Source: an uncultured Pseudomonadota bacterium (GTDB lineage: Bacteria > Pseudomonadota > Alphaproteobacteria > Rs-D84). From it: DNA of 64,000 bases. The translations under genes were made by a program, and so were the position numbers. Each line of letters starts with the position of its first letter. Within the stretch, counting starts at the first letter, position 1. The stretch is from contig OOHL01000002.1 in the NCBI GenBank assembly GCA_900321105.1, forward strand, positions 141,656-205,655. The letters run 5' to 3'. Positions 5,795-63,193 of this stretch are shown here, piece after piece. The notes beneath the pieces were generated by a model. It worked only from the letters and a program-made list of their open reading frames with translations, was not told the DNA's origin and did not search any database.

Positions 5795-6793
5795 ATGAAA
5801 AAAATTCGTGTTGCTATAAATGGATTTGGTCGTATTGGACGTTTGGTCTTGCGCGCGGCATTGGAATCTGGTCGCAAAGACATTGAATTTGTTGCGGTTA
5901 ATGATTTAATGCCGATTGAACAAAATGCGTATTTATTACAATACGATTCTGTTCACGGGAAATTGCCAATGGATGTTAAAATCGATGGCGATTATATATT
6001 GGTTGGCGGGCAAAAAATCAAAAGTTTATCCGAACGCGACCCGTCTAAATTGCCATGGAAAAAATTAAAGATTGATGTTGTTATGGAATGTACCGGATTA
6101 TTTACAGCCGCAGACAAAGCGCGCGTTCATTTGGATTGTGGTGCAAAACGCGTTTTGGTTTCTGCGCCATCCGCGGGGGCAGATAAAACAATAGTTTTCG
6201 GTGTTAATGATAATAAATTGACCAAACGCGATTTGATTGTATCAAATGCATCGTGCACAACAAATTGTCTGGCGCCGGTTTTAAATGTATTGGATAAAAA
6301 GTTCGGAATTATAGACGGATGGATGACAACAGTTCATGCATATACCGGCGATCAACAGTTATTGGATAAAAACCACAAAGATTTTCGTCGCGCACGCGCC
6401 GCTAACTTATCAATGATTCCAACATCCACTGGCGCTGCTAAGGCTATTGGATTGGTATTACCAAAACTGGCGGGTAAAATGGACGGAATTGCAATTCGTG
6501 TTCCAACACCAGATGTATCTGTTGTGGAATTGGCATTAAATGTAAACAAGCGCGCAACAATTGAATCTGTAAACAAGGCAATGTTTGCATCGCAATCTGA
6601 AATTTTGGGGTATAATGACAAACCATTGGTTTCCATAGATTTCACACATGATAAACACAGTTCGATTTTTGATGCATCCCAAACACGTGTTATTGATGAA
6701 CACTTGGTTCATGTCACCGCATGGTACGACAACGAATGGGGATTTTCAAATCGTATGTGTGACACCGCTGTTGCAATCGGAAAAACATTATAA
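5795..6793 (+). CDS. gap: Type I glyceraldehyde-3-phosphate dehydrogenase
   Basis: INGFGRIGR, SNASCTTNCL, WYDNEWG. Confidence 0.97.
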   Translation: MKKIRVAINGFGRIGRLVLRAALESGRKDIEFVAVNDLMPIEQNAYLLQYDSVHGKLPMDVKIDGDYILVGGQKIKSLSERDPSKLPWKKLKIDVVMECTGLFTAADKARVHLDCGAKRVLVSAPSAGADKTIVFGVNDNKLTKRDLIVSNASCTTNCLAPVLNVLDKKFGIIDGWMTTVHAYTGDQQLLDKNHKDFRRARAANLSMIPTSTGAAKAIGLVLPKLAGKMDGIAIRVPTPDVSVVELALNVNKRATIESVNKAMFASQSEILGYNDKPLVSIDFTHDKHSSIFDASQTRVIDEHLVHVTAWYDNEWGFSNRMCDTAVAIGKTL

Positions 6794-6810
6794 AAAACAA
6801 ATAAAAAATA

Positions 6811-6844
6811 AAATAACCCCGTAATATACTGGGGTTATTTTTTT
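6811..6844 (+). terminator. gap terminator
   Basis: aaataacccc/ggggttattt stem plus T-run. Confidence 0.8.
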
Positions 6845-6881
6845 ACTGTATTTTAAAACCTAATTTTGCTAAAATTGTGTT

Positions 6882-7060
6882 GTCAGCAAGAGTTTTGCTG
6901 ATGGGACTAGAAACCCATATAGCTTCGTCTGGAATGACGTTAAAATCTCCAACCTGTTGTGGTTGGAGGGTCGCGAATATATTGAATAAGCACGCAATTT
7001 AAGCTAAATTGTTTCTAGCCTCCAACCGCCCGATTTTTCTCTGGCGGTTCTTTTTGGTTT
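6882..7060 (+). ncRNA. Unrecognised structured cis-regulatory leader RNA, copy 1 (riboswitch/attenuator-like)
   Basis: Homologous to the minus-strand copy at 38425-38601 with compensatory changes; follows TGnTAAAAT at 6867-6875; ends in a terminator-like hairpin. Confidence 0.75.
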
Positions 7061-7079
7061 ACGTCGGGGGAAAAATCAA

Positions 7080-7787
7080 ATGAAACGTTTTTTAATATTA
7101 TTATCGATATTGTTTTGCACAACAGTATTTGCACATACCATTGAATGGTATGTCGATAACACACTGCTTTCAACGACAACATGCGAATCTGGGGATAACA
7201 TAACCCCACCAACCGCACCAGACAAGTATGGATATCATTTCATTAGGTGGATGAAATATACACCTGTTGAATATTTAGACATAAATCAGGGACCTTTTAT
7301 AGAGGTAAATTATCCGTTCAATACAGGAAGTACTTTTGAAACGAAATTATCAATATTAGGGGATATGTCAAACGATAATGGACTTTTTGGCAATACATGG
7401 AACACACAAAGTCTTTTGGTGGTTTTTGATAAAAACAAATTTAGATCATATTTTAGTAAAGGTATTGGTTTGGAAAACACAAAACAAATTTTAAAAAATA
7501 CTCCGTACACATTAAAAGTTGGTAACGGTTTTACTATTGTAGATGGTGTGACTGTTATTGGCACACCACTAAATTCGTTATCTGTATATAAATTAAAAAT
7601 ACCTTATAGCCGCTTATCTGGGACTTTTAGATTCTTTTATTTTAAAATATACGATAATGATGTTTTAGTCCGTGACTTTATACCTATTCTTGATTCAAAC
7701 GGCACACCGTGTATGTATGACAAGGTTCAAAGTGAAGTTTACTACAACGCTGGTACGGGTAATTTCATAGCAGGACCGGCAATATAA
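7080..7787 (+). CDS. Secreted protein, InlB-B-repeat-like N-terminus plus beta-rich (LamG-like) domain
   Basis: Signal peptide; TPPTAPDKYGYHFIRW; C-terminal KIYDNDVLVRDFIP...MYDKV...NAGTGNF. Confidence 0.6.
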   Translation: MKRFLILLSILFCTTVFAHTIEWYVDNTLLSTTTCESGDNITPPTAPDKYGYHFIRWMKYTPVEYLDINQGPFIEVNYPFNTGSTFETKLSILGDMSNDNGLFGNTWNTQSLLVVFDKNKFRSYFSKGIGLENTKQILKNTPYTLKVGNGFTIVDGVTVIGTPLNSLSVYKLKIPYSRLSGTFRFFYFKIYDNDVLVRDFIPILDSNGTPCMYDKVQSEVYYNAGTGNFIAGPAI

Positions 7788-7789
7788 TA

Positions 7790-8503
7790 ATGAAAATCAA
7801 ATCTGTATTTTTGTTGTTTATATTTATATCACAACCTCTGTTTGCTGATATGTTGTGTGATATATCCGTTGATAAATATCGTGCTCTGTATAAACCTTAC
7901 TCTTATACTTGTAGTTCTGGACAATATTTACCGGCAAATACTTTGGGATGTGTATCATGTCCAAATGGTTTTACATGTAATGGCGGAACATTTGAATTTA
8001 ATCCAAATTATTTTCAGGGTATTGATTTTGATGTCACAAACATATCAAATATACAAATGAACAATATATGTGCAGCAAATTTTCCATCCGAAATATTCGC
8101 CATATATGAACCAAACATTCACAATTGCACCACCGGATATTATTTACCCGCAAATGTGGATGAATGTACAATATGTCCCAAAAACAATTATTGTGTTGGT
8201 GGGACATATACCTTTAATGAAACATTAACCCAGGGTATTGAACAATGTGAAAACGGATATTTTGCACCAACTGGTTCCGCGGTTTGTTATCCGCATATAT
8301 TACATATTGATAATAATAATGTTTATTTAAAATCAGACAAAACAACAACGCCGTCTTTAAATATAAAAATTGGGGACGATATATTTTATGCAAATATGAC
8401 AACGATTCCGACAACCATAAATAATACAACCGAACAATATTTAAAAATAAAAAACGGCAACACGGTTTATTATGTGTGCGATGATACGGTGTGCGGGGAA
8501 TAA
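7790..8503 (+). CDS. Secreted Cys-rich repeat protein
   Basis: Signal peptide; two CxxGxYLPANxxxCxxCP...CxGGT repeats; C-terminal KTTTPSLNIKIG domain. Confidence 0.7.
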   Translation: MKIKSVFLLFIFISQPLFADMLCDISVDKYRALYKPYSYTCSSGQYLPANTLGCVSCPNGFTCNGGTFEFNPNYFQGIDFDVTNISNIQMNNICAANFPSEIFAIYEPNIHNCTTGYYLPANVDECTICPKNNYCVGGTYTFNETLTQGIEQCENGYFAPTGSAVCYPHILHIDNNNVYLKSDKTTTPSLNIKIGDDIFYANMTTIPTTINNTTEQYLKIKNGNTVYYVCDDTVCGE

Positions 8504-16126: not shown

Positions 16127-16204
16127 GGGGTGTTAGCTCAGCTGGTTTAGAGCGTCTGCCTGTCACGCAGAAGGTCGAGGGTTCGAGCCCCTTACATCCC
16201 GCCA
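16127..16204 (+). tRNA. tRNA-Asp(GTC)
   Basis: Cloverleaf, GTC anticodon, TTCG T-loop, 3' CCA. Confidence 0.95.
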
Positions 16205-16213
16205 GAGATTTTT

Positions 16214-16288
16214 AGCCCCATCGTCTAATGGTTAGGACACCGCCCTTTCAAGGCGAGAATCCCGGTTCAAATCCGAGTGGGGCTGCCA
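16214..16288 (+). tRNA. tRNA-Glu(TTC)
   Basis: AGCCCCA/TGGGGCT acceptor stem, TTC anticodon, CCA. Confidence 0.92.
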
Positions 16289-23033: not shown

Positions 23034-23118
23034 GCGGGTATGGCGAAACTGGTAGACGCGCTGGATTTAGGTTCCAGTGGGGAAACCCTTAAGAGTTCAA
23101 GTCTCTTTACCCGCACCA
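23034..23118 (+). tRNA. tRNA-Leu(TAG)
   Basis: Cloverleaf with long variable arm, TAG anticodon, CCA. Confidence 0.95.
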
Positions 23119-36331: not shown

Positions 36332-36802
36332 TCATTGCGCGACCGAACCGAACAGCCCGCCGCGCAAAGCGGCGTAGTCCCGGACGTAGGCACCGCAGTA
36401 AATCGTACAGTACGAAGCGCAATCCGAAGCACTCCCGTTGTCGTAGCCGAACGCCCAAAGCGAAGACACGGGATGAGTCAATCGACACCAACAATAACGA
36501 CCATATTTTTCGGAACCAACAACAAGATTTGTTTCGCCTTCATTATTTGTGTCCGTTAAACGCGCAACAGTGCCCCCACGGGATTTACCTTGGTTGCTGT
36601 TTAAACATGCACTGATACCATGAACGGTGCCCTGGGCAGACCAGGCCTTCCAGGTTCCCATAGTGTTATCGTATGTATAACTGGTGATACTGACACTGGG
36701 GTCTAAAACAACCGCAACCGTATCATCCGCTGCGCACATAGTGGTCGCGTATGATGACATTGTCATCATTATCGTTAATACACATATAAATATCTTTTTC
36801 AT
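36332..36802 (-). CDS. Secreted Cys-rich protein; putative DGR target (variable region ~36338-36481)
   Basis: Signal peptide; YCWC..W.F..CASYC..YC; 48 consecutive codons near the 3' end have no third-position A and are rich in NNC codons. Confidence 0.75.
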   Translation of the reverse strand: MKKIFICVLTIMMTMSSYATTMCAADDTVAVVLDPSVSITSYTYDNTMGTWKAWSAQGTVHGISACLNSNQGKSRGGTVARLTDTNNEGETNLVVGSEKYGRYCWCRLTHPVSSLWAFGYDNGSASDCASYCTIYCGAYVRDYAALRGGLFGSVAQ

Positions 36803-36824
36803 TTTTTCTTCCTTTTGTTTTATT

Positions 36825-36858
36825 CTCCCCCTGTGGGGACTCCTCCGAAGGAGGAGAA
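36825..36858. repeat. GC-rich REP-like palindromic element, copy 2
   Basis: ctccccctgtggggactcctccgaaggaggagaa. Confidence 0.75.
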
Positions 36859-36861
36859 CCC

Positions 36862-37377
36862 TTACCACACCGATTCAAACACTGCGTGTCTGAATCCAGA
36901 ACTGTTGGTTGCACCTGCCGGTGACAAACTTGAATTATGATTCAATGCCATTGCGTTCGCACATGCAGATGCACATGACGATGCACAACTTGATGATGTG
37001 GTATAATCATGCAAAAACACCCAATATGATGTTATGCCTGTTTCATAGTGATAATTTGTTGTGTCGTCGTCATCATATATCGGCCACATTTCACACCAAC
37101 AATATTGCCCCGCATCGCCTGCATTCGTATATAAATTCGTTTGCGGTGTCGCAAAAGTCCCTGAAATTTCATTACATGCCGCATAGCCTGTTATCGTTTT
37201 ATAATCGTATTCAACCGCCCATTGTTTTTTAGACGCAGTATTCGTCACATTTGCAACGGTGCCATTTACACCCTTTCTTACGACACCAACATACGTGTTC
37301 AATTTTGCACATATTGTGTATGCGTGTGCTGAATATATTCCCATTATCATTATCAAAAATATCATTATGCGTTTCAT
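36862..37377 (-). CDS. Secreted Cys-rich protein, paralog of 36332..36802
   Basis: Signal peptide; G.AAC, YCWC..WVF..CASSCASAC..FR.AVF.SV. Confidence 0.75.
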   Translation of the reverse strand: MKRIMIFLIMIMGIYSAHAYTICAKLNTYVGVVRKGVNGTVANVTNTASKKQWAVEYDYKTITGYAACNEISGTFATPQTNLYTNAGDAGQYCWCEMWPIYDDDDTTNYHYETGITSYWVFLHDYTTSSSCASSCASACANAMALNHNSSLSPAGATNSSGFRHAVFESVW

Positions 37378-37488: not shown

Positions 37489-38403
37489 TTATTTCACCGT
37501 ATGGTATGTTGTGTTGTTATACTTTATATTTATCGCATCATCTGATGCACCGCTGACCAAATTCACATAACATACATTATTACCAACCTGTATATTCAAC
37601 GATGGCGTGATTTGTTTTTCTGAATACATTGGGAATATCAAGCCAGTTGATGTCCGTAATGTGGTATGTTCACCAGGACATATCGCGGCACATGTTCCGA
37701 TATCTGTATAATTTAATCCACCTGTGCATAATATCCCACATATTGCATCATCGGTATTTTCATCACATTGCTGATTTAAAAGAAATGTTTGATATCCACT
37801 GGCGCACGAACCATTTGTCAATGTTGCCATTGTGTTAGAATTTAACAAGATGTCTTGATAATTCGTTGGACAATCACCCGCAGAATATGTAGAACACGAA
37901 CCATTATTAACCTGAAACCCGTTATCGCAAAGTGTGACTTCTGCGCCCATTACGAAGCCATTATATACAGGATACACATCTTCTGGCATTTCTTTGGCAC
38001 TGTATCCACCTATTTTACATAACCCGTTATCCAAAGCCATAAAAGAAGATGAATTTAATTCCAAATTATCATCGTCTTGCTGACATGTGCCCTGGGTATA
38101 TGCAACACACGCACCGTTGTTCGGTGCATAACCTTCGTCACAAAGCGTGACCGCCGTTCCCATAACAAAACCATTATAAACCGCAACAACATCATCTGGA
38201 ATTTCCAATAATGCATAGCCACCAATTTTACACAAACCACCTTCAACCGCCATAAATGTTGATTCTGAAAAATCGGTATATTGTGTATCTATGTGTTTTT
38301 CAACACCCAATGTTGCATACCCAGATGGACAAGATGAAGAAAATCCAGCATTTACGTAAATAAATACCGATAACATAATAAAAAACTTGTAACCCCGTAT
38401 CAT
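37489..38403 (-). CDS. Secreted Cys-rich tandem-repeat protein
   Basis: Repeats of FMA...GLCKIGGY...VYNGFVMG..VTLCD; C-terminal KQITPSLNIQVG domain; SD GGGGG before ATG 38403. Confidence 0.72.
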   Translation of the reverse strand: MIRGYKFFIMLSVFIYVNAGFSSSCPSGYATLGVEKHIDTQYTDFSESTFMAVEGGLCKIGGYALLEIPDDVVAVYNGFVMGTAVTLCDEGYAPNNGACVAYTQGTCQQDDDNLELNSSSFMALDNGLCKIGGYSAKEMPEDVYPVYNGFVMGAEVTLCDNGFQVNNGSCSTYSAGDCPTNYQDILLNSNTMATLTNGSCASGYQTFLLNQQCDENTDDAICGILCTGGLNYTDIGTCAAICPGEHTTLRTSTGLIFPMYSEKQITPSLNIQVGNNVCYVNLVSGASDDAINIKYNNTTYHTVK

Positions 38404-38424: not shown

Positions 38425-38601
38425 CAAAATAACCGCCAAAACAACAAAGGCGGTTGGAGGTTAAGAACAATTTAAAGACGAAATTGCACCGTTTATTCAA
38501 TATATTCACAGTCCTCCAACCAATCGTTGGAGATTCTTTTACGTCTTTTTCGACGGTCTTCAAATAGGTTCTTAAGCCTAATCAACAAAACCCTTGCTGA
38601 C
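38425..38601 (-). ncRNA. Unrecognised structured cis-regulatory leader RNA, copy 2
   Basis: Homolog of 6882-7060 with covarying helices, identical GAATATATTGAATAA loop and terminator aaccgcc/ggcggtt. Confidence 0.75.
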
Positions 38602-38673
38602 ACAGCAATTTTATAACAAATAAGTATTTAATTACAAGTAAAAAAATACCCGCATTTTGCGGGGAAACATAAA

Positions 38674-41370: not shown

Positions 41371-41443
41371 GGGGTTGTAGCTCAGTTGGTAGAGCACCTG
41401 CTTTGCAAGCAGGGGGTCGTCAGTTCGAGCCTGATCAGCGGCT
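41371..41443 (+). pseudogene. tRNA-Ala(TGC) with a damaged 3' acceptor strand
   Basis: Normal D, anticodon and T arms; 3' strand CAGCGGC gives G.G mismatches with GGGGTTG; no CCA. Confidence 0.75.
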
Positions 41444-46502: not shown

Positions 46503-46587
46503 GGCCCTGTGGCGGAACTGGTAGACGCGCTTGACTCAAAATCAAGTTCTGCAAGGAGTATCGGTTCGATTCCGATCAGGGCCACCA
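46503..46587 (+). tRNA. tRNA-Leu(CAA)
   Basis: GGCCCTG/CAGGGCC acceptor stem, CAA anticodon, CCA. Confidence 0.95.
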
Positions 46588-63103: not shown

Positions 63104-63193
63104 TGGCGGATGGTGAGGGATTCGAACCCCCGGACGAGTTGCCCCGTCAACGGTTTTCAAGACCGCCGCATTCGACCGCTCTGCCAACCATCC
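63104..63193 (-). tRNA. tRNA-Ser(TGA)
   Basis: Reverse complement GGATGGT...ct TGA aa..., long variable arm, ends GCCA. Confidence 0.95.

Follow-up and report, generated by a model that had tools for sequence, protein, structure and literature searches.

The leader RNA and its locus

The window analysed here, a 64,000-nt stretch of contig OOHL01000002.1 (assembly GCA_900321105.1) from an uncultured alphaproteobacterium of the order Rs-D84, carries two copies of an RNA element, hereafter copies A and B. Each copy stands between a promoter-like box and genes read in the same direction, as follows.

6867-6875 (+): extended -10 box of copy A, TGcTAAAAT
6881-7055 (+): copy A of the leader RNA, a full match to covariance model R1 (175.8 bits, E = 7e-42)
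7066-7071 (+): ribosome-binding site (RBS) GGGGGA downstream of copy A
7080-7787 (+): first open reading frame (ORF) after copy A, 235 aa, with a signal-peptide-like N-terminus
7790-8503 (+): next ORF in the same unit, 237 aa, with only a sub-threshold DUF7631 match
38608-38618 (-): -10 region of copy B, TGtTATAAAAT
38425-38602 (-): copy B of the leader RNA, R1 match of 154 bits (E = 2e-36)
37489-38403 (-): first ORF after copy B, 304 aa, with a hydrophobic N-terminus and no Pfam match
36862-37377 and 36332-36868 (-): further ORFs on the same strand as the first, no Pfam match

R1 is a covariance model of the leader that was built from 47 copies. From the arrangement of these features and the variation described below, we regard the leader, with moderate confidence, as a cis-acting transcription-termination switch that would be off by default. 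The two copies share 80% column identity in the alignment and differ by compensatory changes. The minimum-energy fold of copy A reaches -59.5 kcal/mol (z = -4.0 against dinucleotide shuffles) and that of copy B has a z-score of -5.7 in the same comparison. Judged from its -10 box, the copy A transcript would start at about 6881-6883. Its first ORF gave a weak match to the Listeria-Bacteroides repeat (18.3 bits, below the Pfam cut-off).

A glyceraldehyde-3-phosphate dehydrogenase-like gene, recognised by eye from its C-terminal translation, occupies 5795-6846 upstream of copy A. It ends in a terminator hairpin and T-run of its own (about 6813-6846), directly before the leader promoter.

Secondary structure and covariation

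The helices of the leader are given below in the coordinates of copy A. Counts of paired cells and of base pairs that change on both sides refer to 98 model-aligned copies, which came from 84 sources.

6882-6889 with 6895-6902 (+): P1, 5'-terminal hairpin; 8/8 pairs change on both sides, 94.1% of cells pair
6903-6905 (GGG) with 6914-6916 (CCC) (+): P2, local hairpin whose loop is the 5' strand of Pb; 82.6% of cells pair
6907-6914 with 7011-7018 (+): Pb, long-range helix; 6/6 counted pairs change on both sides, 98.6% of cells pair
6920-6925 with 7001-7006 (+): Pc, long-range helix; 6/6 pairs change on both sides, 93.3% of cells pair
6926-6929 with 6936-6939 (+): P3, hairpin CGUC/GACG; 4/4 pairs change on both sides, 98.2% of cells pair
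6947-6954 with 6961-6968 (+): P4, hairpin CUCCAACC / GGUUGGAG; 6/9 pairs change on both sides, 91.4% of cells pair
6970-6993 (+): P4b, stem closing the 15-nt loop; 4/4 stem pairs change on both sides, 87-97% of cells pair
6975-6989 (+): 15-nt loop GAATATATTGAATAA (also written GAAUAUAUUGAAUAA), identical in copies A and B with different closing stems
6995-6999 (CAAUU) with 7007-7011 (AAUUG) (+): P5, local hairpin; UA 58 / AU 28 at one pair, 87.6-92.8% of cells pair
6961-6969 with 7019-7027 (+): PX, putative antiterminator helix GGUUGGAGG / CCUCCAACC; 5/9 pairs change on both sides, 98.5% of cells pair
7024-7030 with 7043-7049 (+): terminator-like hairpin AACCGCC / GGCGGUU, with a T-run to 7056; 6/7 pairs change on both sides, 90.1% of cells pair

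Covariation in every helix shows that the leader is a structured RNA. Taken as a whole, 93.1% of cells pair in the terminator-state structure, where 41/45 pairs change on both sides, and 94.3% in the pseudoknotted antiterminator-state structure, where 40/45 do. None of 500 shuffles reached the observed values and slid registers were 36-48% paired; since the copies are related, the shuffle figures cannot be read as probabilities. Because the 98 copies were aligned with the off-state model, the numbers for P1, Pb, Pc, P3, P4, P4b and the terminator lean towards that state; PX, P2 and P5 are absent from the model used to align those copies. An alignment of 47 copies made with MAFFT and not fitted to any structure gave 88.7% paired cells and 30/45 pairs changing on both sides, again with 0/500 shuffles reaching these values and with 37-47% pairing in slid registers. 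A separate mutual-information scan brought the same helix pairs to the top, the pairs of Pb ranking among the highest.

The local hairpins covary more modestly than the long-range helices. P2 is the weakest-supported helix: its changes are mostly from G-C to G-U, one of its three pairs shows only this one-sided variation, and the other two each change on both sides in a single copy. A shifted register of P2 covaries between G-C and A-U (GC 61, AU 16, GU 12), and overall its covariation argues modestly for the hairpin. P3 is dispensable, as one subclass of the family lacks it. The 15-nt loop of P4b is nearly invariant across 47 copies. The last pair of PX is GC in 73 copies, UA in 12 and UG in 7, and this helix encloses P4b and P5. 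An additional Watson-Crick covarying pair lies outside the drawn helices, between 6907 and 6994 of copy A (alignment columns 27:114; C-G in 44 and U-A in 34 of 97 copies), and may be a tertiary contact or a subfamily signal.

An earlier sequence-only reading of this stretch had proposed, from the two copies of the window, a 5' hairpin, a long-range helix with compensatory changes, inner hairpins, a shared 15-nt loop and a terminator-like hairpin. All of these were found in both copies, in the same order and at the positions it had given, and the double-sided changes of the long-range helix extend in Pb and Pc to the 98 copies. The larger alignment likewise shows covariation, a test which that reading had suggested. 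It had also supposed that local hairpins replace the long helix in the alternative fold. Instead, P5 with Pc and P2 with Pb form pseudoknots: the 3' strand of Pc sits within the P5 loop, and the local hairpins overlap the long helices by only 1-2 bases, so both can coexist. The 3' strand at 7001-7027 pairs in turn with the partner strands of Pc, P5, Pb and, in one state only, PX.

Two competing folds

The strand GGUUGGAGG at 6961-6969 has two possible partners, 6947-6954 (forming P4) and 7019-7027 (forming PX). PX occupies AACC, four nucleotides of the terminator 5' arm AACCGCC, within the conserved CCUCCAACCGCC. An alternative pairing that sequesters the terminator arm had already been suggested from copies A and B, and both the pairing of PX across the family and the variation of its strands agree with it. 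Copies that depart from the usual sequence keep the complementarity of all three strands. Given as P4 5' arm, switch strand and PX 3' arm, the variants include CUCCUGAC / GGUCAGGAGG / CCUCCGACC; CUUCUGCC / GGCAGGAGG / CCUCCUGCC; CUCCAGCC / GGCUGGAGG / CCUCCAGCC; UUCCUAC / GGUAGGAGG / CUUCCUGCC, found in a further copy (copy D) of the same genome; and UUCCUAC / GGUAGGAAGG / CUUCCUAUC, found in the lineage of genome G076, which belongs to another family of the order. Because variant copies alter all three strands together, both folds are under selection, and nothing argues more strongly that the two states are both functional.

For 71 of 97 copies the fold of lowest energy is the terminator (off) state. 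Its median advantage is 12.8 kcal/mol, calculated with an energy model that allows nested pairs only, ignores the pseudoknots and so overstates the gap. An off state of lowest energy would fit a switch that requires a positive signal.

We propose the following mechanism. A strong promoter of the sigma-70 type, lying a few bases ahead of P1, would start transcription, and the nascent RNA would fold into a sensor domain with pseudoknots, a single continuous 3' strand pairing in turn with three upstream partners (in Pc, P5 and Pb). If GGUUGGAGG pairs with the upstream CUCCAAC in P4, CCUCCAACCGCC would be left free, the terminator would form and RNA polymerase would stop before the RBS; P4 would thus represent the anti-antiterminator state. 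If GGUUGGAGG pairs instead with the downstream CCUCCAACC, the PX helix would tie up part of the terminator 5' arm (four bases) and transcription would read through into the gene. An effector would tip the balance towards PX; it might be a protein that recognises the 15-nt loop, or else a small molecule or ion that binds where the three-way junction and the pseudoknots lie. Termination and read-through themselves, and their control by a signal, we infer from the conserved sequence features.

Promoter, terminator and position of the leader

A TAnnnT box precedes the model start by 2-10 nt in 90 of 97 copies, compared with 17% of random genome 22-mers; the -10-like box noted before copies A and B is a feature of the family. 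Its commonest form is TATAAT, and the extended TG is present in 33 copies. Further upstream the aligned sequences share a -35 TTG and a stretch rich in T, and no further conserved motif was found in them. At the other end, 91 of 98 copies finish, like the two copies first described, in a hairpin and T-run, with five or more T among the final 9 nt.

In 74 of 97 copies an ORF begins, with an RBS or ATG, no more than 40 nt downstream. Another 7 of the 97 have too little flank, and several copies with no near ORF start are inner members of tandem arrays. ORF starts at such a distance are too close for a separate promoter; the leader is hence promoter-proximal and the downstream genes would depend on read-through. 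It lies in the 5' untranslated region (5' UTR), in a fixed orientation relative to the downstream gene. A crude stop-to-stop count of orientations gave 65 downstream frames on the same strand, 19 on the opposite strand and 13 with too short a flank, a count confounded by antisense open frames over short helix-turn-helix (HTH) genes, and the RBS-based count is preferred.

Copies of the G076 lineage (L201, L204, L212, L216 and L223) end differently: the last hairpin is followed by an A-run, GGGAGAG and ATG. They keep the sensor helices and the three-strand complementarity, and all precede one paralogous family of signal-peptide proteins. This lineage may use a different, perhaps translational, expression platform. 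An alternative pairing that would sequester the Shine-Dalgarno (SD) sequence (CUUCC with the SD) was not obvious in the minimum-energy folds of these copies.

Elsewhere the leader occurs in tandem arrays of 2-4 complete units, each with promoter, RNA and terminator, separated by spacers of about 70 nt. Examples found through R1 matches are the following; pairs of units also occur in other places.

L106:47-1113 (-): tandem array of four units
G062:C1:71252-71913 (-): tandem array of three units
G123:C2:68171-69064 (-): tandem array of three units
G162:C2:213635-214055 (-): tandem array, within the range of 2-4 units per array

In several arrays the last unit precedes an HTH-like ORF of 62-71 aa that is convergent with mreB.

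Copy number and distribution

BLAST and R1 together detected 4-5 leader copies in the genome to which the window belongs (G000; 874 kb, 93.85% complete). Beyond copies A and B these are:

G000:C5:151789-151965 (-): copy C, third strong copy (BLAST and R1)
C6:28112-28281 (+): copy D, fourth copy (84 bits with R1)
C6:132947-133154 (+): weak fifth copy (30 bits with R1)

All 36 sampled genomes of the same genus matched the leader by BLAST (E <= 1). Across the order, R1 matched 136 of 151 sampled genomes at E <= 1e-5, including 106 of 107 in the genus, 17 of 22 genera and, in family f3, 13 of 19 genomes. Per-genome copy numbers in this survey rest on at most 18 scored candidates each, and the 151 genomes together gave more than 1,190 R1 matches. 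Five genomes of relatives that were counted in full hold 46 (G133), 43, 20, 18 and 17 (G087, a single contig) copies per 0.8-1.0 Mb, and three genomes from other families of the order hold 20, 19 and 23; between species the number ranges from 1 to 46. The sequence-only reading had reported two copies 31 kb apart, both of which are present as described, but they represent a small part of a family that a covariance model, the search it had suggested, recovers from most of the order.

A scan with an exact pattern, using one genome per species, found at least 120 stretches. Among the 80 matches listed, the labels were Candidatus Enterousia, or Alphaproteobacteria, Rickettsiales, proteobacterium or Pseudomonadota metagenome-assembled genomes (MAGs), save three: an unclassified 'bacterium' MAG and bins labelled Bacteroides fragilis (L077) and Muribaculaceae (L099). 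The protein downstream of the L077 copy resembles those from alphaproteobacterial MAGs, and the L099 flank is too short to judge; both contigs are probably mis-binned. According to passages of a published account, Enterousia is placed in the uncultured order Rs-D84, and genome reduction is common to the whole order (PMC12306168).

Three IMG/VR contigs also carry a leader copy. On one of them, classed as viral (L191:9000-14363), the copy adjoins ORFs resembling a DNA methyltransferase, a phospholipase D (PLD)-like nuclease and a lysozyme, and lies upstream of two signal-peptide proteins.

Downstream genes

The genes behind the leader are diverse. In the genome of the window, copy C precedes a paralog of the first gene of copy A and copy D a DegT aminotransferase gene. 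Comparison of 71 first downstream ORFs with Pfam gave HTH_31 in 10, HTH_3 in 6 and HTH_19 in 6 (overlapping sets), the Listeria-Bacteroides repeat in 3, and one each of DegT, ABC transporter, glycosyltransferase family 2 (GT2), outer membrane protein (OMP) beta-barrel, Gly-rich domain and Ephrin-receptor-like domain; most had no Pfam match at all. By a crude heuristic, 33 of 75 first ORFs are signal-peptide-like. The initial suggestion that the leaders serve operons of secreted or surface proteins holds in that such genes are present, but XRE-type HTH, DegT, GT2, ABC exporter and OMP genes are served as well. All 12 copies that lack P3 precede XRE-type ORFs of 71-103 aa, one of these units being monocistronic, and leader subtype consequently follows gene family.

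Comparison with known RNA families

At gathering threshold, Rfam 15 (4227 models) found only six tRNAs in the whole window (tRNA genes at 16127-16285, 23034-23115, 41371-41443, 46503-46584 and 63107-63193). The sequence-only reading had recognised no riboswitch class in the leader, and none of the Rfam families reached threshold there. In E-value mode, the best match within 6700-7200 was sRNA-Xcc1 (RF02221; 30.6 bits, E = 0.002, over 6961-7035). Membership of that family was rejected: the score lies 22 bits under the gathering score of 53, and a search of 20 further copies against Rfam at E <= 10 found nothing on the leader element, which marks the match as chance-level. The resemblance, a 9-bp closing helix around two hairpins followed by a C-rich and then U-rich tail, is limited to the PX, P4b and P5 part. 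Integron cassettes are the usual context of sRNA-Xcc1; the element described here sits in 5' leaders. No description of the leader RNA was found in the literature searched, subscription journals and supplements lying outside that search. The leader is a new RNA family, belongs to none of the families tested and is of a mechanistic kind that is already known.

To that kind belong the T-box leaders and, among 'on' riboswitches, the pbuE adenine riboswitch, which use terminator, antiterminator and anti-antiterminator strands. In its working the element resembles a riboswitch or attenuator leader with terminator and antiterminator, to which a further competing strand has been added upstream. The leader shares with them its 5' position, a terminator 5' arm common to an alternative helix, and predicted termination by default. 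PX closes a three-way junction (PX, P4b and P5) much as the P1 helix of a riboswitch closes its aptamer. Unlike those leaders, the element has no Rfam match, carries a double pseudoknot built on a single 3' strand with three partners upstream, has a conserved 15-nt loop, possesses its own consensus promoter in each copy and occurs in tandem arrays.

With regard to its genes, the family most resembles the c-di-GMP-I (GEMM-I) and c-di-GMP-II riboswitches, which occur in many copies per genome before heterogeneous surface, secreted and regulatory genes. It differs from both in its unrelated fold, the lack of an Rfam match and the failure to find GGDEF in the 94%-complete genome of the window. A likeness to ydaO/kimA consists in the presence of DAC, the cyclic di-AMP (c-di-AMP) synthase, in that genome, c-di-AMP being the only known second messenger for which a synthase was detected; here too an Rfam match is lacking, and the distribution of DAC differs from that of the RNA. 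Protein-dependent antitermination leaders (ANTAR, BglG/RAT, PyrR and LoaP/RfaH types) and the EAR and put elements similarly involve a terminator before surface, polysaccharide or accessory genes, and the conserved loop could be a protein site as in such leaders. Judged by eye, the shape of the leader is unlike the ANTAR two-hexaloop motif or RAT. A single NusG-family gene in the genome sets it apart from RfaH/LoaP/UpxY regulons, and an antiterminator that overlaps its own terminator would point to local attenuation rather than processive antitermination. What is unusual about the family is its up to 46 copies per 0.9 Mb, its own promoter cassette, its tandem arrays and a strand with four partners.

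Candidate effectors and partners

Candidate signals were sought in the genome of the window, to which the 93.85% completeness given above applies. The genes that follow the leader favour no particular ligand. GGDEF (PF00990) and RelA_SpoT (PF04607) were not found there, with control genomes giving matches, so that synthases for c-di-GMP and guanosine tetraphosphate (ppGpp) as possible ligands were not detected. A DAC domain (PF02457) is encoded outside the window, at G000:C6:198575-198925 (+), in a protein of 261 aa. As a general ligand, c-di-AMP is disfavoured: the RNA was matched in 136 of the 151 sampled genomes and DAC, which is patchy within the genus (72/107), in only 83, while family f3 has the RNA in 13/19 and DAC in 0/19. 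Genomes with at least 15 leader copies but without DAC also exist (e.g., G069, G087 and G036), and c-di-AMP is therefore unlikely to be the general signal.

Among possible protein partners, Hfq, CsrA and ProQ were not found in the genome. ANTAR (PF03861) gave no match there, the control genomes being silent too. NusG is represented by a single PF02357 match with no paralog. The small HTH protein that follows the mreB-side arrays was discarded as a partner, having no homolog in the genome of the window (tblastn, best E = 4).

Other possible functions of the element were examined in the same way. A perfect complement of the 15-nt loop occurs in this genome only antisense to the three strong copies. 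At two mismatches there are 30 complements (27 beyond those three copies), compared with a mean of 11 and a maximum of 28 in shuffled sequences, an excess that is only modest and not compelling. The sequence GGTTGGAGG is confined to leaders in this genome. The self-complementary stretch AAUAUAUU of the loop, which might have allowed a kissing dimer, is lost in variants, and a leader peptide was rejected as no start or frame is conserved across copies (alignments, by eye).

Weighing the alternatives

Several points count against the termination switch proposed here. The largest conserved unpaired element is the 15-nt loop, and such a loop is expected at a contact with protein or RNA more than in a ligand pocket. 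The tandem arrays look more like arrays of small RNA (sRNA) genes than like leaders, and such heterogeneous downstream genes would be unusual for a metabolite riboswitch. The A-run that replaces the U-run in the G076 lineage means that intrinsic termination is not the universal output. The large calculated gap towards the off state, overstated as the figure is, also speaks against a switch, and the relatedness of the copies and the fitting of the 98-copy alignment to the off-state model temper the covariation.

The alternative that survives best, unlikely as we judge it, is that the copies are stand-alone sRNA genes acting in trans, by protein titration or by pairing through the loop, with downstream expression as incidental read-through. 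Stand-alone genes would explain why each copy has a -10 box and terminator of its own, and so forms a complete transcription unit, and why units with spacers of about 70 nt are repeated in L106, G062 and G123; the terminated fold as energy minimum in 71/97 copies and a loop conserved like a seed or protein site would suit them equally. Yet 74 of the 97 copies have a same-orientation ORF start so near that no room is left for another promoter, and a helix that overlaps the terminator and is maintained by three-strand covariation would be purposeless in a pure sRNA. The loop, moreover, has its perfect complement nowhere else in the genome and near-complements modestly above shuffles; the Hfq, ProQ and CsrA proteins were not found in this 94%-complete genome; and leader subtype tracks the downstream gene family.

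Quite unlikely, in our view, is a constitutive 5' UTR module that does not switch, be it a stabiliser, a processing element or a leaky terminator holding expression at a fixed low level, the module having multiplied along with promoters as gene families expanded. The searches turned up no effector or cognate regulator, P1 resembles the hairpins generally known to stabilise mRNAs, and the copy number of 1-46 between species is what a cassette spreading with paralogous genes would produce. Against this stand the coordinated triple changes, which keep two exclusive pairings where a static element needs one, and a pseudoknotted domain of about 125 nt with a conserved loop, which exceeds the needs of a fixed attenuator.

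A mobile or selfish repeat (miniature inverted-repeat transposable element (MITE)-, repetitive extragenic palindromic (REP)- or Correia-like), or a relative of integron attC or sRNA-Xcc1, that spread as DNA and whose RNA structure is incidental, is very improbable: although there are up to 46 copies per 0.9 Mb, copy A has its weak sRNA-Xcc1 match (30.6 bits) and three IMG/VR contigs carry the leader, the copies of one genome share only 72-79% identity and every stem has compensatory changes, which indicates old divergence under RNA-level selection and not recent transposition, their orientation to the downstream gene is fixed, aligned copies showed by eye (no repeat-finding tool was used) no terminal inverted repeats and end at promoter and terminator, and the sRNA-Xcc1 score lies 22 bits under gathering and does not recur in 20 copies. 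The remaining probability we assign to something else.

Significance for Rs-D84

The cis-acting termination switch can be extended into a broader, tentative proposal, which we consider possible but doubtful. The leader would be a new riboswitch class, or an RNA sensor of a signal derived from the cell or from a partner, and would act as a master post-initiation regulator of the envelope, of surface proteins and of small transcription factors in the gut bacteria of Rs-D84 / Enterousia, whose genomes are reduced. Through a pseudoknotted aptamer and a three-strand switch it would gate up to 46 units per 0.9 Mb, RNA having replaced most of the protein-based regulation that was lost. Rs-D84 genomes appear to be short of the usual global regulators; in the genome of the window GGDEF, RelA/SpoT, Hfq, CsrA and ProQ were not found and NusG is present once.

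If real, the switch would be a new orphan whose expression platform is unusually clear and backed by triple covariation. Well over 1,000 natural copies can be aligned, an advantage for solving the structure and searching for ligands, and the leader is a ready annotation marker for surface and accessory gene sets in these MAGs. One RNA fold would then control a few percent of the transcription units across an order of uncultured host-associated bacteria with genomes of about 0.9 Mb, and its trigger would tell which signal remodels the cell surface of bacteria living in the gut, possibly on or in other cells.

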